A stretch of 30,573 nt of DNA from Clostridia bacterium. Its GTDB lineage: Bacteria > Bacillota > Clostridia > UMGS1883. Position numbers and translations under genes: made by a program. The stretch's first letter is position 1, and each line of letters opens with the position of its first letter. Below, piece by piece: positions 4,892 through 30,573 of this stretch. Where the stretch lies: positions 1-30,573 of the forward strand of contig JBJDXJ010000047.1 of NCBI GenBank assembly GCA_051866635.1, in the 5' to 3' direction. The notes below the pieces were generated by a model. The model searched no databases, had not been told where the DNA came from, and was given only the letters and a program-made list of their open reading frames with translations.

Positions 4892-5619
4892 AACTTAAAC
4901 TTACAATAAAATACGATGGAACAGCTTATCACGGTTGGCAGATACAGCCCAACGGTGTAACGGTACAGGAGGTTTTAACAAATGCCTTATACTGTCTTTC
5001 AGGGGAAAAAGTTACTGTAACAGGTTGCTCCAGAACTGATGCAGGGGTTCATGCGGCAATGCATGTTTCAAGCTTTGACATGAATACCTCTATCCCCATA
5101 AGTAAAATACCTTTGGTTTTAAACAGGTATTTACCGCCTGACATACGTGCAGTTGATTGCAGTATGGCAGATGAGAATTTTAACGCAAGATATGACACTG
5201 TGGAAAAAACATACCGTTACAGAATATTGAATGCCGAACATAACGACCCATTTTTGTCAAGATATGTGTGGCATTATCCCATAGCCCTTGATGTGGAAAA
5301 AATGAAGGTTGCGTCAGGATACATGGTTGGTGAAAAGGACTTTACCGCATTTATGGCATCAGGCAGCAGTGCAAAAACAACCGTCAGAAATTTAAAGCGT
5401 GTAGATGTTGAAAAAACAGGTGATGTAATCACGATTACCGCTACGGCAAACGGATTTTTGTACAACATGGTCAGGATTATTGTGGGAACGCTTGTTTATG
5501 TGGGTAACGGAAAGCTTACAGCCATGGACGTTCGGGAAATTTTAGAGAAAAAGGACCGCAGATTAGGTGGTGTGACAGCACCGCCCCAAGGGCTTATGTT
5601 AGAAGAAGTTGTGTATTGA
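4888..5619 (+). CDS. truA: tRNA pseudouridine(38-40) synthase
   Basis: 'YDGTAYHGWQIQ', 'SRTDAGVHA', 'GFLYNMVRIIVG', 'TAPPQGL'; ATG 4888 overlaps the ecfT stop (ATGA). Confidence 0.95.
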   Translation: MKLKLTIKYDGTAYHGWQIQPNGVTVQEVLTNALYCLSGEKVTVTGCSRTDAGVHAAMHVSSFDMNTSIPISKIPLVLNRYLPPDIRAVDCSMADENFNARYDTVEKTYRYRILNAEHNDPFLSRYVWHYPIALDVEKMKVASGYMVGEKDFTAFMASGSSAKTTVRNLKRVDVEKTGDVITITATANGFLYNMVRIIVGTLVYVGNGKLTAMDVREILEKKDRRLGGVTAPPQGLMLEEVVY

Positions 5620-5636
5620 TTACAGGGGGTATGAGG

Positions 5637-6761
5637 ATGAAACGAAAAACTCTGGAAATAGTGAAAACGCTTTTACTTATTGCGGCGTTGGCTTTTTTTG
5701 TTATAATAGCAACTTTTCAGCTGTATGAAATGAATGAAGTAAAAATGGAAAGCGAAAGAATTGTGCTGGGGGTTAACAGCTCCACCAGTGATAATTTCGG
5801 GCAGGCGTTAAAGGGTCAGCCTGTGCCTATCGGCAAATATATGGGTCTTGTATCCGGGGGACGGTTTACTGTTATTGATAAAAATGCCCGTGAGAAAAAC
5901 GACGAGGAAAATTTGCTCTCCGACCCTGTCCTTCATGCCAAGGGTGAATTTTGTATAGTGGCAGACTACGGCGGAACTGTGGCAAAGCTTTACGAAAATG
6001 AAAAGATTGAAACAGTTGTTGAAACAGAAAAAAAGATTATTTCCGTTGCAACAAATTCCCACGGCTTTTTTGCTATTGCAACAGAAGGTGTTGGCTATGA
6101 TGCCGTAATTACCGTATACAGAAAAAACGGCGAGGCAATTTACAGATACAATATTGCCAAAAACGACTTTGTTGACATGGAAATAAGCGAAAATAACCGC
6201 AGACTTATTATTGTGGAATCAAACCTTTCTACAGGTGTAGTGGCAAGCAATGTGGTTGTGGCTGAATTTAACCGTGCTGATGCACAGAATGTTTTTACAG
6301 AGGTTTCAAACCTTTATGTGAAAGTGCATTGCAATAAAGACGGCTCATTTGTTTGCATAGGCAGTGAAAGAAGCGATTTTTACCGTGCTGACGGTAAAAA
6401 GTATGCCAAAATTGAGTATGGCGGAAAAACACTGACAGGTGCCGAATTCAATAGCGATGATATTTTGTACCTTTCCTTTGACGGAATAAATGAAAATGAA
6501 ACAGGTGTTTCTGTAGTTGAGATTTATGATAAGAAGGCAAATCTCAAAGGAACGTGTAATTTTACGGACAGTGTTGAATATATATGTGCCAATGGAGCTT
6601 ACTGCAGTGTGGCAACCGGGGATGAAGCAACCATAATAAAGTCTAACGGAAAAATTAAAAAGACTTTTTCTATGACTGCCCCTGTAAAATGTGCGGCGGC
6701 ATTTGCCGATGGGGAAACAGCTGTTATTTTTTCGGGCGGTAATACTACAATTGTGAAATAG
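5637..6761 (+). CDS. Membrane-anchored beta-rich (propeller-like) protein, DUF5711-like
   Basis: One N-terminal TM helix followed by repeated short beta-strands; located directly before cvpA as in other Clostridia; family assignment from recall only. Confidence 0.6.
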   Translation: MKRKTLEIVKTLLLIAALAFFVIIATFQLYEMNEVKMESERIVLGVNSSTSDNFGQALKGQPVPIGKYMGLVSGGRFTVIDKNAREKNDEENLLSDPVLHAKGEFCIVADYGGTVAKLYENEKIETVVETEKKIISVATNSHGFFAIATEGVGYDAVITVYRKNGEAIYRYNIAKNDFVDMEISENNRRLIIVESNLSTGVVASNVVVAEFNRADAQNVFTEVSNLYVKVHCNKDGSFVCIGSERSDFYRADGKKYAKIEYGGKTLTGAEFNSDDILYLSFDGINENETGVSVVEIYDKKANLKGTCNFTDSVEYICANGAYCSVATGDEATIIKSNGKIKKTFSMTAPVKCAAAFADGETAVIFSGGNTTIVK

Positions 6762-6770
6762 GTGATTAGA

Positions 6771-7382
6771 ATGTATTTTGATATATTTGCTTTTGTTTTT
6801 GTTTTGGCTTTTTCATTTATAATGATGAAAAAAGGCGGTGCACAGGCACTTTTAAGCCTTATAAGCCTTATTTTATCAGTGGTGATTGCACTTTTCGTTT
6901 ATCCGTATTTGTCCACTCTTTTGTACGAAACTCCCGTTGACGAAAACATAAGTGCTATCATATCAGAGTCCCTGATGGACAAAAGTGTGAATGAAATGGC
7001 ATCAACCATTTCAGCTATGCCTGATTTCATAGCAGGACCTATGGAAAACTTAATAGCCGAAGATGTACAAACCACATGCGATAGAGTTTCGGATATAGTA
7101 ACAAAAAATATCGTCAACATAATAACCTTTATACTTGTGCTTGTTGTAACAAAGCTGATTCTTGCAATGCTCTTTAAAATGCTTGACATTTTTACGGGGC
7201 TACCACTTATAAAACAGGCAAATTCTCTGGTGGGATTTTTGTGCGGCCTTGTGTTGAGTTTTGTGATTTTAAGCGTTGTTGTACATATCTTAGGCATATT
7301 TGCAGTGGGCAATGAAAGCATTGCACCGGTTTTGGAAAACTCTTACGTAGCAGAGATTGTTGAAACTGTATCGCCATTTTAA
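6771..7382 (+). CDS. cvpA: CvpA family membrane protein
   Basis: About four TM helices, N-terminal 'D...KKGG', 'LPLIKQANSLVGFLCG' and terminal 'ENS' typical of CvpA; alternative start GTG 6762. Confidence 0.75.
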   Translation: MYFDIFAFVFVLAFSFIMMKKGGAQALLSLISLILSVVIALFVYPYLSTLLYETPVDENISAIISESLMDKSVNEMASTISAMPDFIAGPMENLIAEDVQTTCDRVSDIVTKNIVNIITFILVLVVTKLILAMLFKMLDIFTGLPLIKQANSLVGFLCGLVLSFVILSVVVHILGIFAVGNESIAPVLENSYVAEIVETVSPF

Positions 7383-7394: not shown

Positions 7395-8474
7395 GTGACT
7401 TTAATTGAGTTCTTTGATGAAGAAATTATTGACAATGTGGCTGGAACTTTGCTTTTAAGACCTTTCAGGACGGTGTTTTTATACAGCGGTGAAAAAAACA
7501 TTGCTTTTGTAAATGCCATGGAAAAAATACTGGCAAGAAGAAAAATTGAAACCCTTATTGTTATGGAAAGCATTGACATAAGAAGTGTTGAAAGTGCAAG
7601 CTCTAAAATAGAAGAATGTATAAAAAAGTATGATGACTGTCACTTTGACATTTCAGGAGGAAATGACATTATGTTAGTTGCCATGGGAAATGTTGCAAAG
7701 GCATACAATTTACCCATGCACGGTGTTAACCCTATGAAGAATACCGTGACGGCAATAAACGGTAAATTTGACTATACTGTTTATGACGATGCTTTTCTTA
7801 CAGTTGAAGAGCTTATTATGCTCCACGGCGGAAAAGTGAAGCGTGATTTTTCTCGCCCTGAAACTTATACATGGACAAGGGACAGGCACAGTGAAAATAT
7901 TATTGAAAAGACATGGAATGTATGTAAAAGTGATGTAGGTGCATGGAACAGGGCAATCGGCACAATGAAAAGCTACAAAGTTCAAGACAAGAACCTTCTT
8001 AGTATGGTGTGGTCAAAGCTTAAGGCGGCAGGGCTTGTGTACAAGGAAGGAAACACGGTAAAGTATAAAAGCGATATTGTAAAATACCTTATTAATAAAC
8101 AGGGCACTGCCCTTGAAATGTTTACCTTTATTGCGGCAAAAAGCACGGACTTTTTTGAGGACGGGCAGTCAAGCGTTGTGATTGACTGGAAGGGCAGACG
8201 TGACATTGAAAACGAGATAGACGTTGTTTTAACTAAAGGTCTGACAGGCTATTTTATTTCCTGCAAAAACGGAACGGTGGATTCTGATGAATTGTACAAG
8301 CTTAGCATTGTTTCTAACCGTTTCGGCGGAAAGTACGCAAAAAAGATACTTGTTTTGTCAAAGTTTGAACCTGACATGGGCTTTATGAACAGGGCAGAGG
8401 AGTTGGGCATAAGAGTTATAAAGAACGTAAGGCTTTTATCAAAGGAGAGCTTTGGGAAAAAACTTATAAAATAA
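7395..8474 (+). CDS. Card1/Can2-like (DUF1887) CARF domain + PD-(D/E)xK endonuclease
   Basis: CARF-like N-terminus ('NVAGTLLLRP', 'FDISGG'), 'LTVEELIMLHG' linker, C-terminal 'GTALE...NEIDVV...ISCKNG...ELYKL...FGG...RA' nuclease signature. Confidence 0.8.
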   Translation: MTLIEFFDEEIIDNVAGTLLLRPFRTVFLYSGEKNIAFVNAMEKILARRKIETLIVMESIDIRSVESASSKIEECIKKYDDCHFDISGGNDIMLVAMGNVAKAYNLPMHGVNPMKNTVTAINGKFDYTVYDDAFLTVEELIMLHGGKVKRDFSRPETYTWTRDRHSENIIEKTWNVCKSDVGAWNRAIGTMKSYKVQDKNLLSMVWSKLKAAGLVYKEGNTVKYKSDIVKYLINKQGTALEMFTFIAAKSTDFFEDGQSSVVIDWKGRRDIENEIDVVLTKGLTGYFISCKNGTVDSDELYKLSIVSNRFGGKYAKKILVLSKFEPDMGFMNRAEELGIRVIKNVRLLSKESFGKKLIK

Positions 8475-8477
8475 AAA

Positions 8478-8635
8478 GAGACTGTAAAAAAGTCTCTAAA
8501 TAATTTAAGACCATTTGGAACAGTCCCCCTTATGGCAAATTGGGAGACAATTTGCCAAAGAAACCTCTAAAGGTTTTGTTGGGACAGTCCCGAAATGGTC
8601 TTTTTGTTATCTCAGTGTTGACTTTTTACAGCCTC
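8478..8635. mobile_element. Non-autonomous MITE/REP-like element with nested inverted repeats
   Basis: Terminal IR GAGACTGTAAAAAAGTC (8478-8494) / GACTTTTTACAGCCTC (8620-8635); inner IR 8507-8527 / 8581-8602; two central hairpins; no ORF. Confidence 0.55.
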
Positions 8636-8642: not shown

Positions 8643-9935
8643 TTAATTTAGCGAAAATTCTTTGAACTTTTCTCCACGGTCCTCAAAGTTTTTAAAAAAG
8701 CCGTAGCTTGCGGCGGCAGGTGACAAAAGACAAATTGTGCCCTTTGGAGTAACACTCTTTGCCAAAAGAACGGCTTCCTTTAAATCACGGGCAAAATGAA
8801 ATGCTGCCTTGTGATATTTTGTGCCAAATTCTTCAATAATGCGGTTTCCGGTATCATACATGAATATTACGTTGTCCACAGGTGCATCCTTTAAAAAGTC
8901 AATAAGGGGTGAATAGTCAATTCCGCGGTCCATACCGCCGATTAAAAGTGTGCCCACATGGGGAAGGGCATTAACCGCCTGTATTGTTGTCTGGGGAATT
9001 GTTGATATGGAATCGTCATAAAAGATTATTCCGTCCTTTTCGCCGATTTTTTCAAGGCGGTGAGGAAGCGTTTTAAATGTCTTTAAAGCACGTAAAAAAT
9101 CATCCTTTGAAACGCCAAAGCTGTTTGTGACAGCATATGCGGCGGCAATGTTATTTACGTTGTGACTGCCTAAAAGAGGACAAGTGTAATCAAGTGTGAT
9201 TTCATCACCCTTAAAGATAAATGAGTGGGGCATTATTTTTATATTACCAATACTTCCGAAGGATAAAACATGGGCGTTTGTGTGAGCGTCAACGCCTTCC
9301 CCTACTACTAAAAGGTCCCCTTCCTTCTGGTAGCGGTAAATGTTTTTCTTTGCATCGTAATACTTTTCAAAAGTTCCGTAATGGTCAAGATGCTCGGGAA
9401 AAATATTTAAAAATACAGCTTTTGAAGGTGATACGTTTGTATATTCCAACTGATGGCTTGAAAGCTCAAAAACAATTGTATCGGAACTGTTTATCACTCC
9501 GTCAAAGGGCGGTATGCCGATATTTCCCAAAAGAACGGCACTTTTTCCACACTCGTTTAACACATGGTAAATAAGTGAGGAGGTGGTGCTTTTGCCTTTG
9601 GTGCCTGTTACGCCCACCGTCCTGTCACCATAGACGGAAAGAAAAATTTCGGTCTGGGAATAAATCTTTAACATATCCTCAAGGACACCGTCTTCCAAGA
9701 CAATGCCGGGACTTTTCATGATGATATCAAAATCATTAAGTGACGCCTGATAATTTTCCCCTGTTATAATATTCACATTGTCAATTTGCCCGACAGGATT
9801 TAAGTCGCATATTGTAATTGATTTAAAAACCCCTGCCTTTTTAAAAAGGTTGTATGTGCTTTTACCTTCCCTGCCAAAGCCTAAAATGCACACATTTTTA
9901 TCTCGTATTAAATCTGAAACGTAATTTATCAGCAT
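8643..9935 (-). CDS. murD2: MurD-family ligase, MurD2 type (UDP-MurNAc-L-Ala:L-Glu ligase, inferred)
   Basis: Mur ligase motifs GFGREG, KSPGI, GVTGTKGKSTT, ELSSHQL, EHLDHY, PHRLE, DDSIST, LLSPAAAS..FKNFEDRG; start overlaps the murL stop (ATGCTGA). Confidence 0.85.
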   Translation of the reverse strand: MLINYVSDLIRDKNVCILGFGREGKSTYNLFKKAGVFKSITICDLNPVGQIDNVNIITGENYQASLNDFDIIMKSPGIVLEDGVLEDMLKIYSQTEIFLSVYGDRTVGVTGTKGKSTTSSLIYHVLNECGKSAVLLGNIGIPPFDGVINSSDTIVFELSSHQLEYTNVSPSKAVFLNIFPEHLDHYGTFEKYYDAKKNIYRYQKEGDLLVVGEGVDAHTNAHVLSFGSIGNIKIMPHSFIFKGDEITLDYTCPLLGSHNVNNIAAAYAVTNSFGVSKDDFLRALKTFKTLPHRLEKIGEKDGIIFYDDSISTIPQTTIQAVNALPHVGTLLIGGMDRGIDYSPLIDFLKDAPVDNVIFMYDTGNRIIEEFGTKYHKAAFHFARDLKEAVLLAKSVTPKGTICLLSPAAASYGFFKNFEDRGEKFKEFSLN

Positions 9936-11275
9936 AAGTTCAGCTCCCTTTCAACTATATCACGATACCCCAAGGGCAAAAGGTTTTGTCTGTCATAGTA
10001 GGTAGGGTAGGGGTTTGTCATTTCACAATACTTTTTATAAAGGGGTGTAGTCATATAGTATTTATAAAGTGCGGGAAGTTCTCCGCCTTTTTTTATTGCT
10101 TCACAGATGGCAAAGTTGATTTCATCACGACTGCCAACACATTCAAAGGGCTTTTCGTTACTTTCGTGTCCGATAAGCTGATTTAATGTGGGGATAAGGT
10201 TTTCATCATCTGCCATATTTCTGCCGAAAATATCGTTTAAGCTTTCAAAGGACATGAAAGGGGACAATATAAGGTAAACAAATAGACACTTTGAACACTC
10301 GCCGCACCAGATATTTGTGTGACTGCCGCGGTTACAGCTTTTGAAAACCTTGTGATAAGGAGTAAGACGTGAAAAATATGATGCTATCTGATATTCCGAA
10401 AGGGGGCGGAGAAGACTGAAATAGTAAACGCCGCTTTTTATATATTCCTTTTCGTAGTTATTGAAATCACGTTCAAATTCAAAGCTTTTTGAATACTGGT
10501 GGTTAACTGTAGAGTTGGCAACAGTTGATTCATTTGCAGAAGATTCATTTGACAAAACCACATATTTTAAATTGTTGGCATATGCGGTAATAATTGAAGA
10601 AAATGCCACGATAGCAGAAAAGGGGGTGTGTCCGTTAAGGTAGCCCTCTTTATTTAATCTCAGCATTTCACCATCCAATGTGCGTTTTGCAATAAGCTCA
10701 CGACCTGCATATCCCCCTGCCTTAACGCTGTCAATTGTGGCACCTCGGGGATTTATAATGTAAGGATAATTATCATCTTCAAATTCTTTTAAAAGCTCCA
10801 ACGAAACAGAGGAGTCTTTTCCGCCGCCGATGGGAATAAGGTTACCCTTTAAAAAGCGTGTGGATTTATTTGGAGCAGAAACGCTGTTTCCGCATTCAAT
10901 CCGCATAAAGTTTTCACAGGCAGTTATGCCGTTAAGGTAGAAAAATTCACCAAGTCCGTGGAAATAAAGCTTTTTCCACCAGCTAATCTGTGACGGGGTA
11001 AGAGAGCCACACTCAATTATAACGGTGGGAGAACATGTTATTTTCCAATAGCTTACAAGCTCGGCAAGGCCAAGATTGAATACCATAGCCTTAAAATTTT
11101 CGTCCTCTGTGTCAAAATCTTCAGGAACAGGGAAAACCCAGCTTGGGGAAAATGTGGAAAGTTTTGAAATTTCAAAGGTGTATGTAACGGTTAATTCAGG
11201 TCCGTTTTTTAAAATTTCATAGTTTTTATAAAAAAATGTGGGATGAGCCTCCCGCAGGAGTGAATATGTCTTCAT
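9929..11275 (-). CDS. murL: UDP-MurNAc-L-Ala-L-Glu epimerase
   Basis: 'SYWK', PP-loop-like 'IPIGGGKDS', 'NGHTP', 'SNESSA', 'VNHQYSKS', 'SCN...WCGECSKC', 'KPFECVG' - MurL signature blocks; adjacent to a MurD ligase. Confidence 0.88.
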   Translation of the reverse strand: MKTYSLLREAHPTFFYKNYEILKNGPELTVTYTFEISKLSTFSPSWVFPVPEDFDTEDENFKAMVFNLGLAELVSYWKITCSPTVIIECGSLTPSQISWWKKLYFHGLGEFFYLNGITACENFMRIECGNSVSAPNKSTRFLKGNLIPIGGGKDSSVSLELLKEFEDDNYPYIINPRGATIDSVKAGGYAGRELIAKRTLDGEMLRLNKEGYLNGHTPFSAIVAFSSIITAYANNLKYVVLSNESSANESTVANSTVNHQYSKSFEFERDFNNYEKEYIKSGVYYFSLLRPLSEYQIASYFSRLTPYHKVFKSCNRGSHTNIWCGECSKCLFVYLILSPFMSFESLNDIFGRNMADDENLIPTLNQLIGHESNEKPFECVGSRDEINFAICEAIKKGGELPALYKYYMTTPLYKKYCEMTNPYPTYYDRQNLLPLGYRDIVERELNLC

Positions 11276-11313
11276 ACTGTGCCTCCAAACAAAGAAAAAA
11301 TACCTTTTTTAAT

Positions 11314-11341
11314 ATTATATCATAATGCAAAAAAAAGTAAA
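11314..11341 (-). promoter_or_regulatory. Sigma-A extended -10 promoter for murL-murD2
   Basis: Minus strand TG-A-TATAAT (11322-11314), weak -35 TTTACT 16 bp upstream; GGAGG RBS at 11286-11282. Confidence 0.6.
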
Positions 11342-11735: not shown

Positions 11736-12176
11736 ATGTTATCAGGTGAATACAGTCATAGCGTTGATGCAAAAGGCAGAATAATTTTGCCCAGTAAGCT
11801 TCGTGAAGAAATCGGTGACTCCTTCTATGTTACAAGAGGTTTTGAAGGATGTCTTGCAATTTATTCCGCAGAAGAATTTGAAAAGTTGGGAAAAGCAATT
11901 CAGACTTTGCCCGGTAACATGAGAGAGGCAAGACAGCTTCAGAGAATTATTATCACAGGTGCACATCCTTGCGAAGCGGACAAGCAGGGCAGATTTGTTA
12001 TTCCCCCAAGACTTAGGGAAGTGGCAAAAATTGAAAAGGAAGTTACAGTTGTAGGTAACGGCGACCACGCTGAAATATGGAACAGCGATTTGTGGAACGA
12101 GTATATGTATGGTGAAAATTCACTTTCATTGGAAGATGCTGCGGAAGCTTTACAGTTACAGGGATTGTCTCTGTAA
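11736..12176 (+). CDS. mraZ: Transcriptional regulator MraZ
   Basis: 'GEYSHSVDAKGRIILP' and 'DKQGRFVIP' twin DxxxR motifs, 'EIW'. Confidence 0.96.
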   Translation: MLSGEYSHSVDAKGRIILPSKLREEIGDSFYVTRGFEGCLAIYSAEEFEKLGKAIQTLPGNMREARQLQRIIITGAHPCEADKQGRFVIPPRLREVAKIEKEVTVVGNGDHAEIWNSDLWNEYMYGENSLSLEDAAEALQLQGLSL

Positions 12177-12200
12177 AATATAGGGAAGGATGATAAGTTC

Positions 12201-13130
12201 ATGGAATTTTCCCACGTCAGTGTTTTACTTAATGAAACAGTTGATGCCATAAACGTTAAAGAAGGCGGTCTGTACGCCGATATGACAATGGGCGGCGGCG
12301 GACACAGTGCGTTAATTCTTGAAAGAGGCGGAGTCTTATACGGCTTTGACCAGGATATTGATGCAATAGAGGCTTGCAAGAGACGATTTTGTGATATGGG
12401 TGACAGATTTAAGCCCATACATTCAAGTTTTAAAAATATTAAAAATGAGCTTGATCTAAAAGGTGTGGACAAGCTCGACGGTATAATTGCAGATTTGGGC
12501 GTTTCTTCCTATCAATTGGACGAAGCGGAAAGAGGATTTTCCTATATGCATGACGCACAGCTTGATATGCGTATGGACAGGAGAAATCCCATAGATGCAA
12601 AGGTTGTTGTGAACACTTACAGCGAAGAAAAGCTTTGCGAAATTATATCAAAGTACGGCGAAGAAAAATGGGCGGTACGAATTGCAAAATTTATAGCTGA
12701 TGCCAGAGAACAAAAAGAAATTGAAACAACAGGTGAACTTGTTGAGATTATAAAGGCTGCCGTTCCCGCATCTGCAAGAAAGGACGGACCCCATCCTGCA
12801 AAGAGAACCTTTCAGGCAATAAGAATTGAAGTTAACGGTGAACTGAGAATTTTGGAAAATGCAATACGTGACGGTGTTGAAAAACTTAAGTGCGGAGGAA
12901 GAATGGCAATAATTACATTCCATTCTTTGGAAGACAGAATTGTGAAGGAAACTTTTAACTCGTTGCAGAACGCATGCACTTGCCCAAAAAGCTTTCCCGT
13001 TTGCGTGTGTAATAATAAAAACAGTGTCAGGGTGATTACAAGAAAGCCCATCCTTCCCACAAAGGAGGAAATTGACATTAATCCCAGAAGCAGAAGTGCG
13101 AAATTAAGAGTGTGCGAAAAGATTATATAA
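12201..13130 (+). CDS. rsmH: 16S rRNA m4C1402 methyltransferase
   Basis: 'HVSVLLNE', 'GGGGHS', '[10 protein letters not shown]', 'FQAIRIEVN', 'FHSLEDR', '[10 protein letters not shown]'. Confidence 0.97.
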
Positions 13131-13724: not shown

Positions 13725-13736
13725 GTGGAGGGTAAT

Positions 13737-16001
13737 ATGGCGAGGGTATCCGTTAAGGCAAAAAATCGAATAGTGAGAATGTTTGTAGCCTACATTTTGC
13801 TGATGTGTATTGTTGTAGGTGCTTTGGTGTATTATCAGCTGATTAAAGGCGAAGAGTATAAGGAAAAAGCCGCCGAACAGCAGACTCAGGACCAAAAGGT
13901 CGAAGCAAAAAGAGGCAGTATTTACGACAGAAACATGAAAGTCCTTGCCCAGTCAGCCTCCTGTGAAGATGTTATGATTAACCCAAGACAAATAAAGTCT
14001 ACCGCAAAAGCACAGGAAAAAAGAAGAATAGCCGCAGAAAGCGAAGGCAAAGCCTTTAAAGAAGAGGATGTAATTGAAAAAATAGTTAAAAACCTTACAG
14101 AGCTACTTGAAGTTGACGAACAGTGGCTCAGGGAAGAAATAGAAGCCGATTATGCCAGCAGGCGTATTAAGAAAAAGGTTGACCAATCTGTTGTCAATAG
14201 CATTCGTGCTTTGGATTTGCCAGGTGTGTTCTTTGTTGAATCCACAAAACGCTACTACCCTTATTCAAGCTTTGCATCACATATAATAGGCTTTACAGGC
14301 GATGACGGAAACGGTCTTGAAGGTTTGGAAAAAACCCTTAACAGCACACTGGCAGGTACAGCCGGCAGAATACAGGTTGTAAAGGATGTTCATAATAACG
14401 ATACACCTTATGAATACGAAAATTACATTGCCCCCGAGGACGGTAAGGGCGTTGTTCTTACGATAGATGAAGTTTTGCAACACTATGTGGAAAAGTACCT
14501 TGAGGAGGTATATACACTCCACAAGGTTCAGAAGGGTGCCGCCGCTATTATGATGGATGCAAAAACAGGGGAAATATTGGCGATGGCTGTAGAACCTAAT
14601 TTTGACCTTAACAATCCCAGATACGTGGATGCTGATTTAAAAGAATTGGTGATGGGCGGTACAAAGGAAGACGGCAGTGAGTACACAGATTATGAATTTT
14701 TAACAAAGCTTTGGAGAAACAAGGCTGTTTGTGATACTTACGAACCAGGCAGTACTTTTAAGTCAATTGTTGCGGCATCAGCAGTTGAATCGGGCGTTGT
14801 AAACCCTGCAACGGACACATTTGTATGTACAGGTTCAAAAAGGGTTTCTGTTCATACTATAAGATGCCATAAGCGTTCAGGTCACGGTGCAGAAACCTTC
14901 TATCAGGCGTTGGAAAACAGCTGTAACCCTGCCTTTATGGAAATGGGTGCAAGGTTAGGCTATAAGAAATTCCGTGAATATTTTGAAGCCTTTGGATTTA
15001 TGGACGAAACAGGCTTTGTCCTTCCGGGTGAATCAAAGGGTATTTTCTTCAGCCCCAATAATTTTAACGAAGCGGAGCTTGCAACAAGTAGCTTCGGTCA
15101 GGGCTTCTCAATTACGCCACTTCAGATGATTACTGCCTTTTCGGCAGTTGTAAACGGCGGTAACCTTATGAAGCCTCAGCTTATTAAGGCATACACCGAC
15201 AATGAAGGCAATATTATCGAAAATGTAGAGCCTGAATTGGTAAGAAAGGTTATAAGCGAATCTACAAGCAGTGTCATGCGTGCGGCATTAGAGGGCGTTG
15301 TTGCCACAGGTACGGGTAAAACTGCTTATGTGGAGGGCTACAGAATAGGCGGTAAGACAGGCACAAGTGAAAAACTGCCACGTGGTCAGGGTAAGTATGT
15401 TGCCTCCTTCATAGGCTTTGCACCTGCGGATGACCCACAGATTGTGTGTCTGATGCTTCTTGATGAACCCGGTGCAGGGCAGACAGGCGGTAGTGCTGTT
15501 GCGGCACCTGCGGTGGCGAAAATTCTGACAGACTCTTTGAAATATTTAGGATATGAACCTGAGCTGTCTGACAGTGGTGCGGAATTGACATATGTTCCCT
15601 CTGTAATAGACAAGAGCGTATCGGAAGCAACAAAGCTCTGTAAGGAAGCTGGTCTTGAGGTTACTATAAGCGGCAACGGTCAGGTTATAAAAAATCAACT
15701 TCCCAAGGCTAATACAAAGAGATTAAAGGGAAGCCCTGTTGTTCTTTATACAGATGTAACCGAGGATGTAAAGGTGGAAATGCCAAACTTTTTGTACATG
15801 ACAAAAGCGGAGGTTGAAAAGGCGGCAAAGGATGCCGGCTTGGGCCTTGTTATAACAGGCGGCGGTGCAACGGGAGTTGTTACCGACGACATGGTTGCCG
15901 TAGACCAGGGAACAGCGGCAGGTGAGGTTGTTGTTGTGGGAAGTGTGGTAACCGTACATTTTGCAGATAATATAGTAGAAGGTCAGGATATGATTGAATA
16001 A
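13737..16001 (+). CDS. Class B penicillin-binding protein (SpoVD/FtsI type) with two PASTA domains
   Basis: 'RGSIYDRN', 'KRYYP', 'YEPGSTFK' (SxxK), 'SCN' (SxN), 'KTGT'; C-terminal PASTA repeats; GGAGG RBS before ATG 13737. Confidence 0.92.
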   Translation: MARVSVKAKNRIVRMFVAYILLMCIVVGALVYYQLIKGEEYKEKAAEQQTQDQKVEAKRGSIYDRNMKVLAQSASCEDVMINPRQIKSTAKAQEKRRIAAESEGKAFKEEDVIEKIVKNLTELLEVDEQWLREEIEADYASRRIKKKVDQSVVNSIRALDLPGVFFVESTKRYYPYSSFASHIIGFTGDDGNGLEGLEKTLNSTLAGTAGRIQVVKDVHNNDTPYEYENYIAPEDGKGVVLTIDEVLQHYVEKYLEEVYTLHKVQKGAAAIMMDAKTGEILAMAVEPNFDLNNPRYVDADLKELVMGGTKEDGSEYTDYEFLTKLWRNKAVCDTYEPGSTFKSIVAASAVESGVVNPATDTFVCTGSKRVSVHTIRCHKRSGHGAETFYQALENSCNPAFMEMGARLGYKKFREYFEAFGFMDETGFVLPGESKGIFFSPNNFNEAELATSSFGQGFSITPLQMITAFSAVVNGGNLMKPQLIKAYTDNEGNIIENVEPELVRKVISESTSSVMRAALEGVVATGTGKTAYVEGYRIGGKTGTSEKLPRGQGKYVASFIGFAPADDPQIVCLMLLDEPGAGQTGGSAVAAPAVAKILTDSLKYLGYEPELSDSGAELTYVPSVIDKSVSEATKLCKEAGLEVTISGNGQVIKNQLPKANTKRLKGSPVVLYTDVTEDVKVEMPNFLYMTKAEVEKAAKDAGLGLVITGGGATGVVTDDMVAVDQGTAAGEVVVVGSVVTVHFADNIVEGQDMIE

Positions 16002-16009
16002 AGGAAGGA

Positions 16010-17446
16010 ATGGTGGCAGTGCGTCTTGGAAAATTAATTGAAAAAACACAGGCTGTAGCAAATGAAATTATGTCAAACTTAGAAATAAGTGACGTTGTTT
16101 ATGATTCCAGAAAGGTGACAAATGGGTCATTATTTGTGGCGGTCAGGGGATATAAAAGCGACGGTCACAAATTTATTGCACAAGCCATCGAAAAGGGTGC
16201 AAAGGTTATTGTAGGTGAAGATGAATATGATTGGGAAAACTACATCCGTGTACCTGACTCAAGAAAGTTTTTGGCAATAAGCTCCAAAAACTTCTTCGGA
16301 AACAGTGCCGACAGACTGAAAATTGTGGGCATTACAGGCACAAACGGAAAGACAACCGTAAGCTACCTTATAAAGCAGATTCTTGAACTTAAGGGATATA
16401 AGTGCGGACTTATCGGAACAAATCAGATTTTGGTGGGGGATGAAGCAATCGAGTCTGAAAGAACAACCCCCGAATCACGGGAATTGCACGAGCTTTTCGG
16501 AAGAATGGAAAAAAGCGGTGCAGAATATGTGGTAATGGAGGTTTCAAGCCATTCCTTGTATCTTGACAGAGTTTATGGGATAGAGTTTGAAACTGCAATA
16601 TTTACAAACCTTACACAGGACCATCTTGATTTCCACGAAACAATGGATAACTATGCCAAAGCAAAGGCTAAGCTTTTTACAATGAGTAAAAATGCAGTTA
16701 TAAATGTTGACGACCCTTACAGTAAAGTAATGATAGGTGACAGAGAAGATGTTATCACTTACTCTGTGGATTGTAAGTCCTCGTTAAAGGCTGAAAATAT
16801 AAGAATGAGTGAACGAGGCGTTATTTTTGATGTAAAGTATAATGGCGAAACAAAAATGATGCGGCTTGGCATCCCCGGCAGATTTTCTGTGTATAATGCA
16901 CTTTCCGCTTGCGGTGGGGCACTGTCAATGGGTCTTAGCTTAGAGGACATTGAAAAAGGGCTTCTTTTAGCACGTGGTGTGAAGGGCAGACTTGAGGTTG
17001 TCCCCACTACAACGCCTTATACTGTTATAATTGACTATGCACATACACCTGACGGGCTGGAAAACGTTATAAAGGCAGTAAGGGGCTTTGCAAAAAGAAG
17101 GGTAATTACGCTATTTGGTTGCGGCGGTGACCGTGACAATACAAAGAGACCTATAATGGGCCGCATTGCCGGCGAATTGTCCGATTATGTGATTGTCACA
17201 AGTGACAACCCCAGAGGGGAGGAACCCGCATATATTATTCGTGATATAGTAAAGGGTATTGAAAGGGACAATTATATTACAATTGAAAACAGAAAAGAAG
17301 CCATAGGCTATGCCCTTGATTTTGCAAAAGATGGGGACGTTATTATCTTAGCCGGTAAGGGACATGAAACATATCAGATTTTTAAAGAAGGTACAATACA
17401 CTTTGACGAAAGAGAAGTAGTTAAAGAGTTTTTATCAAACAAATGA
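16010..17446 (+). CDS. murE: UDP-MurNAc-tripeptide synthetase (meso-DAP type)
   Basis: 'GITGTNGKTT', 'TTPE', 'MEVSSH', 'DHLDFH', 'DYAHTPD', 'DNPR' (DAP-specific), 'AGKGHE'; alternative start GTG 16019. Confidence 0.95.
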   Translation: MVAVRLGKLIEKTQAVANEIMSNLEISDVVYDSRKVTNGSLFVAVRGYKSDGHKFIAQAIEKGAKVIVGEDEYDWENYIRVPDSRKFLAISSKNFFGNSADRLKIVGITGTNGKTTVSYLIKQILELKGYKCGLIGTNQILVGDEAIESERTTPESRELHELFGRMEKSGAEYVVMEVSSHSLYLDRVYGIEFETAIFTNLTQDHLDFHETMDNYAKAKAKLFTMSKNAVINVDDPYSKVMIGDREDVITYSVDCKSSLKAENIRMSERGVIFDVKYNGETKMMRLGIPGRFSVYNALSACGGALSMGLSLEDIEKGLLLARGVKGRLEVVPTTTPYTVIIDYAHTPDGLENVIKAVRGFAKRRVITLFGCGGDRDNTKRPIMGRIAGELSDYVIVTSDNPRGEEPAYIIRDIVKGIERDNYITIENRKEAIGYALDFAKDGDVIILAGKGHETYQIFKEGTIHFDEREVVKEFLSNK

Positions 17447-17463
17447 TTTAAGGAAGTGACGAA

Positions 17464-18414
17464 ATGAACTGGGGAATAAGTCTTATAATAGCCTTTATTA
17501 TAACGAGCGTTGTTACACCTTTGCTCATTCCTTTTTTAAGAAAACTAAAGTTCGGTCAGACAATTTTAGAGGATGGACCCATATGGCATTCAAAAAAGCA
17601 GGGTACACCTACTATGGGTGGATTGGCGTTCATCCTTGCAATTGCCGCCGCAACACTACTTGTATCACGGGATAAGTATGCACTTTATGTTGTTGTATCA
17701 GGTTTGCTTTTCGGTGCGGTTGGATTTATTGACGACTATATTAAAGTTGTAAAGAAAAGAAATAAAGGCTTTTCCGCCGCAGCAAAATTCCTTTGCCAGA
17801 CACTTTGTGCTGTTATCTTGGCGATTTTCGCCTTTTTGGAGGGTTTAACTGAAATAAGAATTCCCTTTGTTTCGGGTGTATTTAATATCGGCGTACTTAT
17901 TATTCCCTTTACGGCATTTGTATTTTTGGCAACTGTAAACAGTGTCAATCTTACAGACGGTATTGACGGCTTGGCATCAAGCGTAAGCTGTGTGTGTGCA
18001 CTTTTCTTTATGGCGGCTGCCGTAAAGCTGGGGAACGGTGCGGTAAGCGTTGTGTTAGGAGCAACAATAGGCGGACTTCTTGGATTTTTGATATATAATT
18101 TTTTCCCGGCAAAGGTATTTATGGGCGATACAGGTTCACTGTTCTTAGGCGGTATATTGTCCGGTGCGGCAGTTGTACTGGGAATGGAATTTTTCCTTAT
18201 TATTGCAGGATTTGTATTCCTCAGTGAAACAATGAGCGATATTATACAGGTTAGTTATTATAAAAAGACAAAAAAGAGAATTTTTAAAATGGCTCCGCTT
18301 CATCACCACTTTGAAATGTGTGGTTGGAAGGAAACAAAAATTGTGGGCATATTTACGCTTGTAACAGCCATTTTGTGTGCTGTTTGTTATTTGGGATTAA
18401 TTGTGAAAGGATAA
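17464..18414 (+). CDS. mraY: Phospho-MurNAc-pentapeptide transferase
   Basis: 'KQGTPTMGG', 'GFIDDY', 'NLTDGIDGL', 'FMGDTGS', 'MAPLHHHFE'. Confidence 0.97.
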   Translation: MNWGISLIIAFIITSVVTPLLIPFLRKLKFGQTILEDGPIWHSKKQGTPTMGGLAFILAIAAATLLVSRDKYALYVVVSGLLFGAVGFIDDYIKVVKKRNKGFSAAAKFLCQTLCAVILAIFAFLEGLTEIRIPFVSGVFNIGVLIIPFTAFVFLATVNSVNLTDGIDGLASSVSCVCALFFMAAAVKLGNGAVSVVLGATIGGLLGFLIYNFFPAKVFMGDTGSLFLGGILSGAAVVLGMEFFLIIAGFVFLSETMSDIIQVSYYKKTKKRIFKMAPLHHHFEMCGWKETKIVGIFTLVTAILCAVCYLGLIVKG

Positions 18415-18420
18415 TTTCTG

Positions 18421-19581
18421 ATGGCTAAAAAGGTTCAGGACAATGTTGTAGCACTGAAGACAAAAAAAGAAAAAGGAAGCATAGATGTGGACTTTACCCT
18501 TTTGTTTTGTATTCTTTTGCTTCTTATGTTGGGGCTGACTATGGTGTTTTCCACGTCCAGTGCCGCAAATATGATGTCGGGAGATGTATACGACCCCATT
18601 ATAAAACAGGCCCTTTTATCATTCGTTGGTCTTATACTTATGTTTATAGTTTCAAGGCTTGACTACAGATATTTGAAGCCTTTTACAACACTTATGTATC
18701 TTTTTATACTGGGCGTAATGCTGATGGTTGGTATTTGGGGTGTTGCATCCCACGGTGCTGTAAGACAGATTAGCTTAGGACCATTGGGTAGTATTCAGCC
18801 TTCGGAATTTTCCAAGTATTTTATGATTTTATGGCTTGCAATGCGTTTTTCCTCCATGTCAAAGGCAAAGCTTAACACATGGCGTGAGTTTTTGATAACC
18901 GTTGGCGGTGTTGGCTTTGTTGTTATGGAATGTATTGTACTTCAGCGTCACGCATCAGGTGCAATCATCCACCTTTTGGTAGGTGTTGCAATGATTGTGG
19001 CGGCAGGCGTTGACTGGAAAAAGCTTATACCCGTTGGATTGATAGGCTGTGGTGCACTTGTTGCCATTATCCTTACAACGGATTTCCGTACAGACAGAAT
19101 TACAAGTTACTTCCACCGAGGAGCCGACCTTCAGGGTGCAGACTGGCAGTCTACACAGTCATTATACGCTGTAGGAAGCGGCGGATTATTCGGTCTGGGA
19201 CTTGGTAACAGCAGGCAAAAGTACTCCTACCTTCCCGAAGCGGAAAACGACTATATTTTTGCAATTGTTTGCGAAGAGTTGGGATTTATAGGTGCACTTT
19301 TAATTATTATTATTTTCTGCATTGTAATCTGGCGTGGCATAAGCATTGCACTTAATTGCCGCGATGCTTTCGGTACTTATGCGGCTTTCGGAATTACTGT
19401 ACTTATAGGTTTTCAGGTACTTATAAATATGTGTGTTGTGTTGCACCTTATTCCTTCTACAGGTATGCAGTTGCCACTGTTTTCTTCGGGCGGTTCCAGT
19501 GTTATAGCCGTCCTGGGCGGATTCGGGATATTGCTATCTATATCACGCGAAAACATAAAAAACTCCAAGGGAGGGGTTTAA
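18421..19581 (+). CDS. ftsW: SEDS peptidoglycan polymerase (FtsW/SpoVE)
   Basis: 'IQPSEFSK', 'GSGGLFGLG', 'LPEAENDYIF', 'EELGF', 'LPLFSSGGSS'. Confidence 0.92.
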   Translation: MAKKVQDNVVALKTKKEKGSIDVDFTLLFCILLLLMLGLTMVFSTSSAANMMSGDVYDPIIKQALLSFVGLILMFIVSRLDYRYLKPFTTLMYLFILGVMLMVGIWGVASHGAVRQISLGPLGSIQPSEFSKYFMILWLAMRFSSMSKAKLNTWREFLITVGGVGFVVMECIVLQRHASGAIIHLLVGVAMIVAAGVDWKKLIPVGLIGCGALVAIILTTDFRTDRITSYFHRGADLQGADWQSTQSLYAVGSGGLFGLGLGNSRQKYSYLPEAENDYIFAIVCEELGFIGALLIIIIFCIVIWRGISIALNCRDAFGTYAAFGITVLIGFQVLINMCVVLHLIPSTGMQLPLFSSGGSSVIAVLGGFGILLSISRENIKNSKGGV

Positions 19582-20688
19582 ATGAGAGTATTGTTAACAG
19601 GGGGAGGCACTGCGGGGCATATTAACCCTGCTGTTGCCGTAGCAAAATATATTCAGAATAAAGAGCCTGAAAGTGAGTTCCTTTTTATCGGCACGGAGCG
19701 TGGTTTGGAAAAAACTTTGGTGCCAAAGGAGGGCTTTCCCATTGAGTTTGTAAAGGTAATGGGATTAAGGCGTAAAATTACTCTTGAAAACTTAAAGGTT
19801 TTAAAGGAATTTGTAACAAGTAAAATCGAAGCCGGCAAAATTGTTGACAGATTTAAGCCCGATATTGTTATAGCCACCGGTGGGTATGCGTGCACACCTG
19901 CGGTTTATGCGGCAAAGAAAAGAAATATTCCCGTGATTATACACGAGCAGAATGTATATCCCGGTCTTGCCATAAAGATGCTCAGCAAAAAGGCGGATAT
20001 TACTGCCATAAGTTTTCCCGAAACGGAAAAATTACTTGAAGCTAAAGCATGTGCCCTTACGGGTAACCCCTTAAGACCGAACCTTTTTGAAAAAACTGAC
20101 AGGGAAGAAGTTTTGAATGAGTACGGCTTTGACGACAAGCCTATTGTGCTTTTCTTCGGAGGTTCTTTAGGTGCGGAGAGAATGAACGATGCCCTTATAG
20201 GCATGATTGAAAAAGGGTTTGACTCCTTTAACCTTATTGCGGCAACAGGCGAAAAGCATTACGAGGGCATAAAGGGCAGGCTTAAAGAAAAAAATGTTGA
20301 TATTGACAATATGAAAAACCTTGCACTTTTGCCCTATATTTACAACATGAATTCTGTTTTGGGAAATGCTTCCCTTGCAGTGTGTCGTGCAGGTGCAATT
20401 ACAATAAGTGAATTGAACGCTTTGGGTAAGGCATCTATCCTTATACCAAGCCCCTATGTTGCTCACAATCATCAGGAGCAGAATGCCCGTTATCTTGAAG
20501 AATGTGGAGCGGCAAAGATACTTTTGGAAAGCGAGCTTTCGGAGGATGCACTTTTAAATAGCATAACTTCCCTTCTTTCAGACCCTGATGAACTTAATAA
20601 AATGTGTGAAAATTCGGAAAAAATGGGACAGAAGAATGCCTGCGAAAAAATTTATCAGCTTGTTTTAAGGCTGACTGAAGAAGGGTAA
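19582..20688 (+). CDS. murG: Lipid II synthase (GlcNAc transferase)
   Basis: 'GGGTAGHINP', 'HEQN', 'GNPLR', 'GGSLGA', 'RAGAITISEL', 'HQEQNA'. Confidence 0.96.
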   Translation: MRVLLTGGGTAGHINPAVAVAKYIQNKEPESEFLFIGTERGLEKTLVPKEGFPIEFVKVMGLRRKITLENLKVLKEFVTSKIEAGKIVDRFKPDIVIATGGYACTPAVYAAKKRNIPVIIHEQNVYPGLAIKMLSKKADITAISFPETEKLLEAKACALTGNPLRPNLFEKTDREEVLNEYGFDDKPIVLFFGGSLGAERMNDALIGMIEKGFDSFNLIAATGEKHYEGIKGRLKEKNVDIDNMKNLALLPYIYNMNSVLGNASLAVCRAGAITISELNALGKASILIPSPYVAHNHQEQNARYLEECGAAKILLESELSEDALLNSITSLLSDPDELNKMCENSEKMGQKNACEKIYQLVLRLTEEG

Positions 20689-20690
20689 AT

Positions 20691-20740
20691 GACAAGAAAG
20701 AGACCTTCTGCATAGTATGTAGTGTATATTTGCAGGAGGT
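20691..20740 (+). promoter_or_regulatory. Putative sigma-E/K-type promoter with an RBS-sequestering hairpin before murA
   Basis: GACAA (20691-20695)-N15-CATAGTAT (20711-20718); ACCTTCTGCA (20703-20712) pairs with TGCAGGAGGT (20731-20740), which contains the RBS. Confidence 0.55.
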
Positions 20741-20747
20741 GTAGCAT

Positions 20748-21995
20748 TTGAAATACGTTATCAGAGGAGGAAAACCCTTGGAGGGCGTTGTCCGTGTACA
20801 GGGGGCGAAAAACAGTGTGTTGCCGATTTTAGCGGCAAGTATTTTATCCTCGGATAAATGCGAAATTTACGATTGTCCCCATCTTAAGGATGTGGATATA
20901 ACGCTTGAAATTCTACGTAATTTAGGATGCAGTGCCCTGTGGGAGGATGACTGTGTTGTTGTGGATTCCTCAATGGCATTTTCATGGGAAATCCCGGAGG
21001 ATTTAATGCACAGCTTACGCAGCTCCATTGTTTTTTTAGGTGCTGTGACCATGAAAATGGGCAGAGCCAGGGTTTCCATGCCCGGAGGATGCCTTTTGGG
21101 GGCAAGACCTATAGACTTGCACCTTAAGGCTTTAAAACAGCTTGGGATAAAAGTTACGGAGGATGCGGGATTTATTGAAACAGATGCCTCCGGTGCCCAT
21201 GCCGCAAATGTGCATCTGGCGTTTCCAAGTGTAGGTGCTACTGAAAATACCATACTTGCGGCTGTTAAAATAAAAGGCGACAGCGTAATAACAAATGCCG
21301 CCCGTGAGCCTGAAATTGTAGATTTGGTCAATTTCTTAAACGCCATGGGTGCGAAAATTGAAGGTGAAGGGTCGGGAACCATACATATACATGGCGTTCC
21401 ATCCCTAAAGGGTATAAGCTACAGAATTATACCTGACAGAATTTGTGCCGCAACTTTTATGTGTGCGGCAATGGCATCTGGCGGTGAAATAGAAATAGAA
21501 AACGTTAAGGCAAATCACTTAACCGCCATAACAAACGAATTGAGAGAAGAAGGAGCACGCATTGAGTTTTTCGGTGACCGTGGATATATCCGTGCACCGA
21601 GGAAAATAAAAAGTGCTTCTGTTATAAAAACAATGCCTTATCCCGGATTCCCCACAGATGCTCAATCGGTGTTTATGCCCCATTTGATAAAGGCGGATGG
21701 AACCAGCGTAATTGTAGAAAACATTTTTGAAAACAGGTTTAAAATAGTTTCCGATTTGTGCCTTATGGGTGCGGATATTGTCACAGAAGGCAGAAGTGCT
21801 GTAATACGTGGAGGACGAAAGCTTAAAGGTGCTCATGTATATGCACCTGACCTTCGTGGCGGTGCCGCACTTATTTTAGCGGCTCTTTCGGCACAGGGGG
21901 AAAGTATTGTGGAGGATACGGGTCATATTGAGAGAGGATACGAAAAGATTGCCGAGAACTTACTTGGGCTTAAAGCAGATATAAGGGTGGAATAA
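20748..21995 (+). CDS. murA: UDP-GlcNAc 1-carboxyvinyltransferase
   Basis: 'GAKNSVLPIL', 'PGGCLLGARPIDLH' (catalytic Cys), 'SVGATEN', 'YPGFPTD', 'DLRGGAAL', 'RGYE'; TTG start. Confidence 0.95.
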   Translation: MKYVIRGGKPLEGVVRVQGAKNSVLPILAASILSSDKCEIYDCPHLKDVDITLEILRNLGCSALWEDDCVVVDSSMAFSWEIPEDLMHSLRSSIVFLGAVTMKMGRARVSMPGGCLLGARPIDLHLKALKQLGIKVTEDAGFIETDASGAHAANVHLAFPSVGATENTILAAVKIKGDSVITNAAREPEIVDLVNFLNAMGAKIEGEGSGTIHIHGVPSLKGISYRIIPDRICAATFMCAAMASGGEIEIENVKANHLTAITNELREEGARIEFFGDRGYIRAPRKIKSASVIKTMPYPGFPTDAQSVFMPHLIKADGTSVIVENIFENRFKIVSDLCLMGADIVTEGRSAVIRGGRKLKGAHVYAPDLRGGAALILAALSAQGESIVEDTGHIERGYEKIAENLLGLKADIRVE

Positions 21996-21998
21996 AAA

Positions 21999-26405: not shown

Positions 26406-26434
26406 TTGCAAATAGTGTTAAATAGAGGTATAAT
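26406..26434 (+). promoter_or_regulatory. Sigma-A promoter of the M42-hslO operon
   Basis: TTGCAA (26406-26411)-N17-TATAAT (26429-26434). Confidence 0.7.
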
Positions 26435-26462
26435 AAACGTATCAAATTATGGTGGTGAATTT

Positions 26463-28489: not shown

Positions 28490-28502
28490 AAGGAAGATTA
28501 AA

Positions 28503-30520: not shown

Positions 30521-30573
30521 GGGAGTTTAGCTCAGCTGGGAGAGCATCTGCCTTACAAGCAGAGGGTCATAGG
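30521..30573 (+). tRNA. tRNA-Val(TAC), 3' end truncated by the window edge
   Basis: GGGAGTT-TA-GCTC D-arm, anticodon arm TCTGC-CTTACAA-GCAGA (TAC at 30554-30556). Confidence 0.93.

Follow-up and report, generated by a model that had tools for sequence, protein, structure and literature searches.

A predicted MurL/MurD2 route to cell-wall D-glutamate in Clostridia

In Xanthomonas oryzae, D-glutamate (D-Glu) is supplied by a two-gene route, MurD2/MurL (Feng et al., 2017, 2019, as summarized in a review, PMC8788868). According to the available excerpts of that review, MurL uses one ATP and releases AMP, and the pair has been reported in Xanthomonadales, three alphaproteobacterial genera and four actinobacterial genera. 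Another review, also available as excerpts, mentions low-similarity MurL matches in a fungus, cyanobacteria and an amoeba, and in the accessible text of both reviews MurL is described as a protein without known domains. Here we analyze a window of 30,573 nucleotides (nt), the whole of contig JBJDXJ010000047.1 from a gut-type Clostridia bacterium (GCA_051866635.1; assembly of 2.33 Mb in 63 contigs, 96.6% complete). On its minus strand, the open reading frame (ORF) list and family matches identify two adjacent genes: a murL homologue encoding 448 amino acids (aa) at 9929..11275, and a gene for a 430-aa MurD-family ligase (murD2) at 8643..9935. We consider it very probable that this pair is a working, racemase-independent MurL/MurD2 route to D-Glu, functionally orthologous to that of X. 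oryzae.

The two genes share a 7-nt overlap, ATGCTGA (9929..9935, minus strand), which holds the murL stop and the murD2 start. The junction reads GAACTTATGCTGATAAAT on the minus strand, with the ligase ATG at 9935-9933 and the murL TGA at 9931-9929. Both reading frames and all sequence blocks quoted in an initial annotation of this DNA are present: GGGKDS, NGHTP, SNESSA, VNHQYSKS, WCGECSKC and KPFECVG in the MurL homologue, and GFGREG, TGTKGKSTT and DDSIST in the ligase. Given the family matches described below, neither gene can be put down to chance.

The MurL homologue and its predicted fold

Against the MurL model of NCBIfam, NF041275, the 448-aa protein has an E value of 4.8e-71 (239.6 bits; residues 57-390 on profile positions 53-390 of 447), while the same model gave no match in 14 control genomes. 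The precomputed Pfam families of an identical protein are PF26298 (MurL_epimerase_C) and PF26299 (MurL_N), and both lines of evidence bear out its placement in the MurL family by the initial annotation. When we scanned the protein with the Pfam library, the only match was a sub-threshold one to DUF6395, and the QueC family (PF06508 / TIGR00364) gave no match at E 0.01.

The protein comprises an N-terminal domain (residues ~1-140) and a QueC-like PP-loop core that begins at residue ~143, with the GGGKDS motif at 150-155, a cluster of cysteines (Cys314/324/327/330) and a further invariant cysteine, Cys379. Invariant positions in an alignment of 38 MurL members are G151-G152-K153-D154, H216, P218, N243, N258-H259-Q260-Y261, K263, C314, C324, C327, C330 and C379. 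Profile alignment also placed VGGGKDS of MurL on the PP-loop VSGGKDS of TtuA (E 1.5e-4).

A sequence search of the Protein Data Bank (PDB) returned no MurL structure. The AlphaFold2 model of the protein is confident (predicted local distance difference test score 95.0, predicted template modeling score 0.93). The top Foldseek matches of this model are QatC and QueC (E 8e-4 to 1e-2, probability 0.99-1.00). VIA-align superposed model residues 7-409 on QatC (9y01_B) with a Z score of 18.8 and a root-mean-square deviation of 3.9 over 320 aligned residues. Scores were lower for QueC (Z 13.3 with 2pg3 and 12.5-12.6 with 3bl5) and for Cap9 (Z 12.3), and the remaining PP-loop enzymes in an unbiased search reached at most Z 8.9. 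Sequence identity of MurL to the QatC, QueC and Cap9 structures is 9-18%. Judging by the model, MurL resembles a PP-loop adenylating enzyme, yet it lies outside the QueC family by sequence.

Taken by themselves, these structural matches would suit a QueC-family enzyme that acts in deazapurine metabolism or in a defense system and not in cell-wall synthesis. We regard this explanation as extremely improbable: besides the lack of a QueC family match in the Pfam scan and the low identity to the solved structures, it leaves aside the strong match to the MurL model and a conserved partner that is a Mur ligase, encoded beside the division and cell-wall (dcw) gene cluster, and the annotated neighbors include no qatABD or CD-NTase gene. 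For a residue-level comparison with MurL, the organism's own genome offers no QueC, its best matches reaching 20 bits. The initial annotation had treated a grouping with QueC or other PP-loop enzymes as incompatible with MurL, which is a false dichotomy, since the MurL family is itself predicted to have a QueC-like PP-loop fold.

A fold of this kind fits the published ATP-to-AMP stoichiometry of MurL, and together the modeled fold and the stoichiometry support a mechanism in which the Glu alpha-carboxylate is activated by adenylation. For the ATP- and Mg-dependent, AMP-forming, one-way L-to-D epimerization of the terminal Glu that would mark a MurL enzyme, the PP-loop motif and the QueC-like fold give indirect support. 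In the pathway that we propose, the ligase would act as a Mur-family ATP-dependent ligase and attach L-Glu, as its residues and family suggest. MurL would then bind ATP at the PP-loop (GGGKDS), adenylate the alpha-carboxylate of the terminal L-Glu and invert the alpha-carbon, a course suggested by its family, fold and motif, after which MurE of the adjacent dcw cluster would carry on the canonical pathway. Invariant Cys379, His216, His259 and Lys263 are candidate acid/base residues of MurL, with putative roles in proton transfer. The four clustered cysteines would hold a structural zinc ion, like those of QueC-family proteins, a reading based on the cysteine pattern, the fold match and the accessible part of a paper on QatC (PMC13279940). 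The murL-murD2 pair would be the organism's only source of cell-wall D-Glu.

The ligase, its linkage to MurL and other sources of D-Glu

The 430-aa ligase matches the murD model TIGR01087 over profile positions 1-438 of 441 (315.5 bits, E 6.4e-94), above the cut-off of 211.95 bits. In Pfam, it matches Mur_ligase_M at 89.1 bits, with sub-cut-off scores for the N domain (22.5 bits) and the C domain (22.7 bits); the P-loop TGTKGKST spans residues 110-117. As the excerpted review reports (PMC8788868), X. oryzae MurD2 differs from Escherichia coli MurD at four positions of the Glu site (Glu197/Asp182, Arg358/Lys348, Pro433/Ala414 and Phe435/Leu416); an E197D/R358K double mutant turns MurD2 completely to D-Glu, and P433A and F435L leave its specificity unchanged. 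We aligned the window ligase residue by residue to E. coli (Ec) MurD chains, with the numbering checked via Lys115 of GSNGKST. Glu181 falls at the position of Ec Asp182 (Ec-182) and Arg337 at that of Ec Lys348 (Ec-348), while Ala409 and Tyr411 correspond to Ec Ala414 and Leu416, and Ile310 to Ec Lys319. By this alignment the window ligase has both specificity determinants of MurD2, Glu and Arg, in agreement with the MurD2-type enzyme that the initial annotation had proposed. The same annotation had also listed DDSIST among the variants of the ligase. We rejected its Ile (the Ec Lys319 position) as a mark of MurD2: Ile is present there in the canonical MurD of relatives without MurL too, which read NSSIDS or NDSIAS.

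We then asked how these residues are distributed among 41 related genomes, 40 of which encode exactly one MurD-family ligase. The MurL-linked ligases carry PEHLD and GGMDRG (E and R) in 12/12 cases, and the ligases of MurL-less relatives carry PNHLD and GGxDK (N and K) in 28/28. The association extends to more distant proteins. A search of a genome collection found the MurL pathway in at least 592 species genomes; in the best 80 of these, hereafter the named loci, each with 43% or more identity to the query, 76 ligases could be typed as E,R (67), D,R (8) or truncated (1). In the ligase parts of 39 MurL-ligase fusions, the Ec-182 position holds E 35 times and D 4 times, and the Ec-348 position, covered by 36 of them, always holds R. 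Conversely, 41 canonical ligases of the class (12 from relatives and 29 from other families) mostly have N,K (25 cases) or D,K (14), two of them showing other pairs, with Glu at Ec-182 in none and Arg at Ec-348 in one.

The ligase sequences as a whole show the same division. Compared with MurL-linked ligases, the window ligase shows 65-71% identity within its own and its sister genus and 45% to the one in genome G025; with the MurD of other genera in its own family, identity is only 29-34%. In an unrooted FastTree phylogeny, a quick method applied to 79 rows chosen from ~185 available sequences with no characterized MurD2 among them, a single branch with 98% local support parts 38 MurL-linked ligases from 41 canonical ones. 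The hidden Markov model score was rejected as a separator of the two types: it works in the 41 relatives (288-321 versus 344-393 bits) and fails in the class at large, in which the TIGR01087 scores of some canonical ligases lie at 280-317 bits.

Ligase and MurL are also physically linked. Of the 12 carriers among the relatives, 10 have the ligase gene immediately 3' of murL in the same orientation, and in the other two the pair is split at contig ends. In the named loci, the ligase is directly downstream or fused in 76/80; of the other four, one is cut off behind murL and three lack a ligase within 3 kb. Single-chain fusions of MurL and ligase account for 39 of the best 150 family representatives and occur in both domain orders (P0124, P0131, P0183, P0217, P0149, P0190, P0158 and 32 further representatives); NCBIfam confirmed them in 8/8 tested. 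Within the class, a genome assembled as a single contig carries such a fusion as a frame of 1,019 aa (G078:C1:598513-601503).

Two further observations concern unusual arrangements of these genes. The fusion P0158 (1,247 aa) carries a third, C-terminal domain of the M20-type amidohydrolase/carboxypeptidase kind. L136 / G042 (Lachnospiraceae AC2028), L096 and L127 each have a MurL homologue with no ligase within 3 kb, and the AC2028 genome gave no MurD-family match at E 1e-40 anywhere, despite its MurL.

In the genome under study, the window ligase is the sole MurD-family ligase. We found no match to TIGR00067 (MurI), none to PF01177 (Asp/Glu racemase) at E 0.1, and for TIGR01121 (Dat) only a 41.8-bit match in a 362-aa frame. 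Because all 41 relatives carry such a weak TIGR01121 match (36-49 bits, in frames of mostly ~360 aa), we read this frame as a different class IV aminotransferase. Searching the genome by tblastn with MurI from two relatives and Dat-like proteins from two relatives returned nothing at E 0.01, and canonical MurD queries matched only the window ligase, MurE and one further Mur ligase. In keeping with the initial annotation, the genome thus yielded no murI, Asp/Glu racemase, Dat-like enzyme or second murD; all computational checks suggested there spoke for its reading.

The relatives show a complementary pattern. MurL is present in 12 of the 41: all ten genomes of the genus, one sister genus (g2) and one genome of another family. 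Of these 12 carriers, one has MurI over the cut-off (G003) and none has a Dat-like enzyme; no MurI was found in the sister genus g2 or in 9/10 genomes of the genus, G000 among them. Relatives without MurL have MurI in 20/29 cases, and 8 of the other 9 have a Dat-like enzyme (226-240 bits). MurL with MurD2, MurI and Dat-like enzymes are therefore almost mutually exclusive across the 41 relatives, and sequence-based assignment points to three different D-Glu solutions within one order.

Two groups among the MurL-less relatives deserve mention in their own right. Genera g10 (7 genomes) and g14 of family f3 (e.g., L055 and L056) lack both MurI and MurL and have a Dat-like class IV aminotransferase whose 226-240 bits lie under the 277-bit equivalog cut-off. 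In G011 (genus g3 of the same family as the window genome, 96% complete), neither a MurD-family ligase (at E 1e-40) nor MurL or MurI was found, and the one aminotransferase match is the weak class IV one shared by the relatives; its assembly may lack the relevant contigs, or else the D-Glu step is handled differently.

To extend the comparison, we drew an even sample of 400 genomes from the class. MurL occurs in 17/400 genomes, from 12/216 genera and at least 9 families. None of these 17 has MurI, and among the 15 new carriers the count over the cut-off is 0/15; the background, counted on 399 genomes, is 349/399 at E 1e-30. Nor was MurI found over the cut-off in five named MurL carriers (0/5), namely Pseudobutyrivibrio xylanivorans DSM 14809, Lachnospiraceae bacterium AC2028, and metagenome-assembled genomes (MAGs) of Ruminococcus flavefaciens, Marinifilum and Solobacterium. 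Carriers overall include Lachnospiraceae, Ruminococcus, Erysipelotrichaceae/Erysipelotrichales and Bacteroidota, and a search of 1.84 billion representatives with MurL returned 2,610 clusters at E 0.001 and 1,157 at 1e-30. While related genomes are not independent of one another, the complementary pattern recurs across families and phyla.

Several observations weigh against a working MurL/MurD2 route. The MurL score of 239.6 bits falls far short of the 700-bit equivalog cut-off of NF041275. This model was built for and trained on Xanthomonadales, and its cut-off is reached in 0/400 genomes of the class sample; because the model is lineage-specific, the sub-cut-off score does not decide function. 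In the ligase, Ala409 and Tyr411 do not match Pro433 and Phe435 of MurD2, a mismatch that is no determinant given that P433A and F435L left the specificity of the X. oryzae enzyme as before. Asp stands in place of Glu at Ec-182 in 10-11% of MurL-linked ligases (4/39 fusions; 8/76 loci). In addition, Arg at Ec-348 also occurs in D-Glu-specific MurD, as seen in an S. agalactiae structure and in 1/41 canonical ligases, and as the excerpted review (PMC8788868) states for S. mutans.

This last point bears on the possibility that the ligase is an ordinary D-Glu-adding MurD. D-Glu would then come from the environment, among the D-amino acids of gut or rumen, or from an unrecognized racemase, and the MurL homologue would have another job, for instance the epimerization of a different peptide or muropeptide recycling. 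The ligase does exceed the murD equivalog cut-off, it shares its Arg with D-Glu-specific streptococcal MurD, and its substrate preference is here a prediction from sequence. However, Glu at Ec-182 is found in 0/41 canonical ligases and tracks MurL (12/12 versus 0/28), and MurL and ligase are fused, in both orders, in 39/150 family representatives. MurI is moreover missing from all 15 and all 5 further MurL carriers against the class background of 349/399, a pattern that a MurL supplying D-Glu would explain and that one would not expect from a MurL with some other task. We therefore judge an ordinary MurD to be unlikely.

The other points against the route concern additional sources of D-Glu. 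As the assembly is a 63-contig draft, the failure to find murI and dat does not prove that they are absent. Moreover, G003, a same-genus MAG that is 59% complete, has MurI (238 bits) besides murL-murD2. This MurI lies on a contig of 2,981 bp (C34:1-2981, L172), and since the other half of the contig matches G000 (C46:6606-7982) at 71% nucleotide identity, it is not dismissible as contamination; both routes may coexist in G003, or the genome may represent an intermediate stage of replacement. By extension, the window pair could be a redundant second route, with a real murI or dat in the unassembled 3-4% of the genome, which the fragmented, 96.6% complete assembly and the example of G003 would allow. 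Yet neither MurI in 9/10 genus genomes and the sister genus g2, nor a Dat-like enzyme in any of the 12 carriers among the relatives, came to light. MurI is also absent from the 15 and 5 independent carriers, many of them 96-100% complete and two on a single contig. With one MurD-family ligase per genome, the E/R ligase must in any case serve the main pathway, whatever else is present. Redundancy is, in our view, very unlikely, and we retain MurL/MurD2 as the route that most probably supplies D-Glu in this organism.

Gene neighborhood and expression signals

The pair lies next to the dcw cluster and is transcribed away from it. Divergent from murL-murD2, mraZ and rsmH (11736..13130, plus strand; TIGR00242 and TIGR00006) form the head of the cluster, and the gene order beside the pair is mraZ-rsmH-(ORF)-spoVD-like penicillin-binding protein (PBP)-murE-mraY-ftsW-murG-murA-ftsQ-like, with ftsZ also nearby. 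Within the cluster, a gene at 16010..17446 (plus strand) matches NF001126 with 609.9 bits (cut-off 373). The neighborhood is kept in the genus: mraZ and rsmH adjoin murL-murD2 in 7/7 same-genus loci, a count that leaves out G005 and G008, whose loci lie at contig ends.

The part of the cluster from the PBP gene to the ftsQ-like gene (13725-22751, plus strand) contains neither murF nor murD. We considered whether murD had been displaced from it and rejected this idea, as the canonical murD of MurL-less relatives is likewise outside the cluster, with mraY, ftsW, murG, mraZ or rsmH within 1.5 kb of it in 0/27 loci. The gap between mraY and ftsW is thus uninformative.

The murL-murD2 pair is probably read as one transcript with coupled translation, as its layout suggests. 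The initial annotation had called the genes translationally coupled; the 7-nt overlap stands, and coupling is what we infer from it. A Shine-Dalgarno-like GGGAG (9948-9944, minus strand) precedes the ligase ATG by 9 nt, and a GGAGG ribosome-binding site (11282..11286, minus strand) lies 6 nt 5' of the murL ATG at 11275. By consensus match, a candidate sigma-70-like promoter, TTTACT-16-TATAAT with a TG extension (10/12 matches), is located at 11314..11341 on the minus strand, ~40 nt 5' of murL and inside the 460-bp divergent intergenic region that murL has in common with mraZ. Promoter-like sites show no excess in this region (7 observed versus 10.1 expected from shuffles), and an Rfam scan of it gave no match. 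Also by consensus match, a terminator-like hairpin with a T-run (8477..8497, minus strand) follows murD2 and overlaps the 3' end of a convergent gene; with 4 terminator-like sites found and 3.2 expected from shuffles, we do not count these as an excess.

The convergent gene (7395-8474, plus strand) encodes a 359-aa protein with a C-terminal Card1-like endonuclease domain (PF09002, 36.5 bits) and no NCBIfam match. It is preceded, at 5616-7382 on the same strand, by genes for a DUF5711 protein (381 aa) and then a membrane protein of the CvpA / colicin V production family (206 aa). Further along the window, three paralogues of the M42 glutamyl-aminopeptidase family (363, 333 and 348 aa) stand in a row at 26406-29483 (plus strand), and a partial tRNA is cut by the window end at 30521-30573 (plus strand; Rfam 36.2 bits, no ARAGORN call).

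Significance and comparison with known systems

As far as gene content can tell, the MurL/MurD2 route is much more widespread than the excerpted reviews state, and it is common among anaerobic commensals. A full-text literature search, with supplements outside its scope, found no paper on the MurL/MurD2 pathway in Firmicutes or Clostridia, and several of the matches to "MurL" look, from their titles, like misprints of MurI. The initial annotation had called the route uncharacterized in Clostridia. This agrees with the searched literature, but in databases the MurL family label is already attached to Bacillota proteins, by families of Pfam 38.1 and by automatic cluster names. Its proposal of a narrow-spectrum target fares less well: with the pathway in at least 592 species genomes, many commensals would be hit too, and this breadth weakens the argument.

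If the proposed function is correct, glutamate-racemase inhibitors would spare this organism and the many commensals with murL-murD2. The argument published for targeting MurD2/MurL in Xanthomonas and Stenotrophomonas with a narrow spectrum would also need revision: major fiber degraders of rumen and gut appear to depend on the same enzymes, among them Pseudobutyrivibrio xylanivorans DSM 14809, MAGs of the Ruminococcus flavefaciens type and many Lachnospiraceae. Carriers would also be miscalled as D-Glu auxotrophs by genome-scale metabolic models and by automated annotation, whose present labels are "hypothetical protein" and "MurD". The natural fusions and the QueC/QatC-like PP-loop fold offer concrete handles on the mechanism of MurL.

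A broader interpretation would tie these observations together. Here murL-murD2 would be a self-contained two-gene, often fused one-gene, cassette that has repeatedly replaced murI and murD across gut and rumen anaerobes (Clostridia, Erysipelotrichales and Bacteroidota) and forms a major D-Glu route in host-associated anaerobes, no longer a peculiarity of a few genera. MurL would be a full-length structural relative of the anti-phage enzyme QatC, with an N-terminal extension, a QueC core that has a zinc site, and C-terminal helices; the cell-wall epimerase and the defense enzyme would descend from a common ancestor that adenylated carboxylates to act on peptide or protein termini. We offer this combination tentatively, as having somewhat less than an even chance of holding in all its parts.

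In most of the class, D-Glu is handled by canonical MurD with MurI or Dat-like enzymes. The window ligase shares with canonical MurD its three-domain Mur-ligase architecture, the same step in the pathway, a MurE downstream and a TIGR01087 score over the cut-off. It differs in having E/R where canonical enzymes have N/K or D/K, in its position on the other side of the 98%-supported branch and in its identity of only 29-34%, and no racemase or D-amino-acid aminotransferase was found in the window genome.

For MurL, the closest structural comparison is QatC of the QatABCD defense system. The accessible text on QatC (PMC13279940) describes a QueC core (residues 145-377), a four-cysteine zinc site and N- and C-terminal extensions. 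Cys314, Cys324, Cys327 and Cys330 of MurL parallel the QatC zinc site C334/C354/C357/C360, and MurL likewise has N- and C-terminal extensions around its core, whereas QueC and Cap9 of the type IV cyclic oligonucleotide-based antiphage signaling system (CBASS) are without them. MurL is set apart from QueC, QatC and Cap9 by its predicted substrate, a UDP-muramyl dipeptide versus a deazapurine carboxylate or a protein N-terminus, and by its predicted outcome, epimerization versus amide or nitrile formation. Term searches of the available portions of two QueC-family papers showed no mention of MurL.

The pair most resembles X. oryzae MurD2/MurL: it has the adjacent genes, the MurL family match, a MurD-like ligase with Glu and Arg, and a genome in which neither MurI nor Dat was found. 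It differs in its Clostridia lineage, with other carriers in Erysipelotrichales and Bacteroidota, in a score below the Xanthomonadales cut-off, in Ala and Tyr at the Pro433 and Phe435 equivalents, in the 7-nt gene overlap and in the fusion seen in many relatives. The Clostridia pair is thus a new lineage for a known system and not a new kind of system. What is new in substance is its breadth across Clostridia, Erysipelotrichales and Bacteroidota, the fusions, the three-way partition of D-Glu sources within one order and the QatC-like architecture of MurL.

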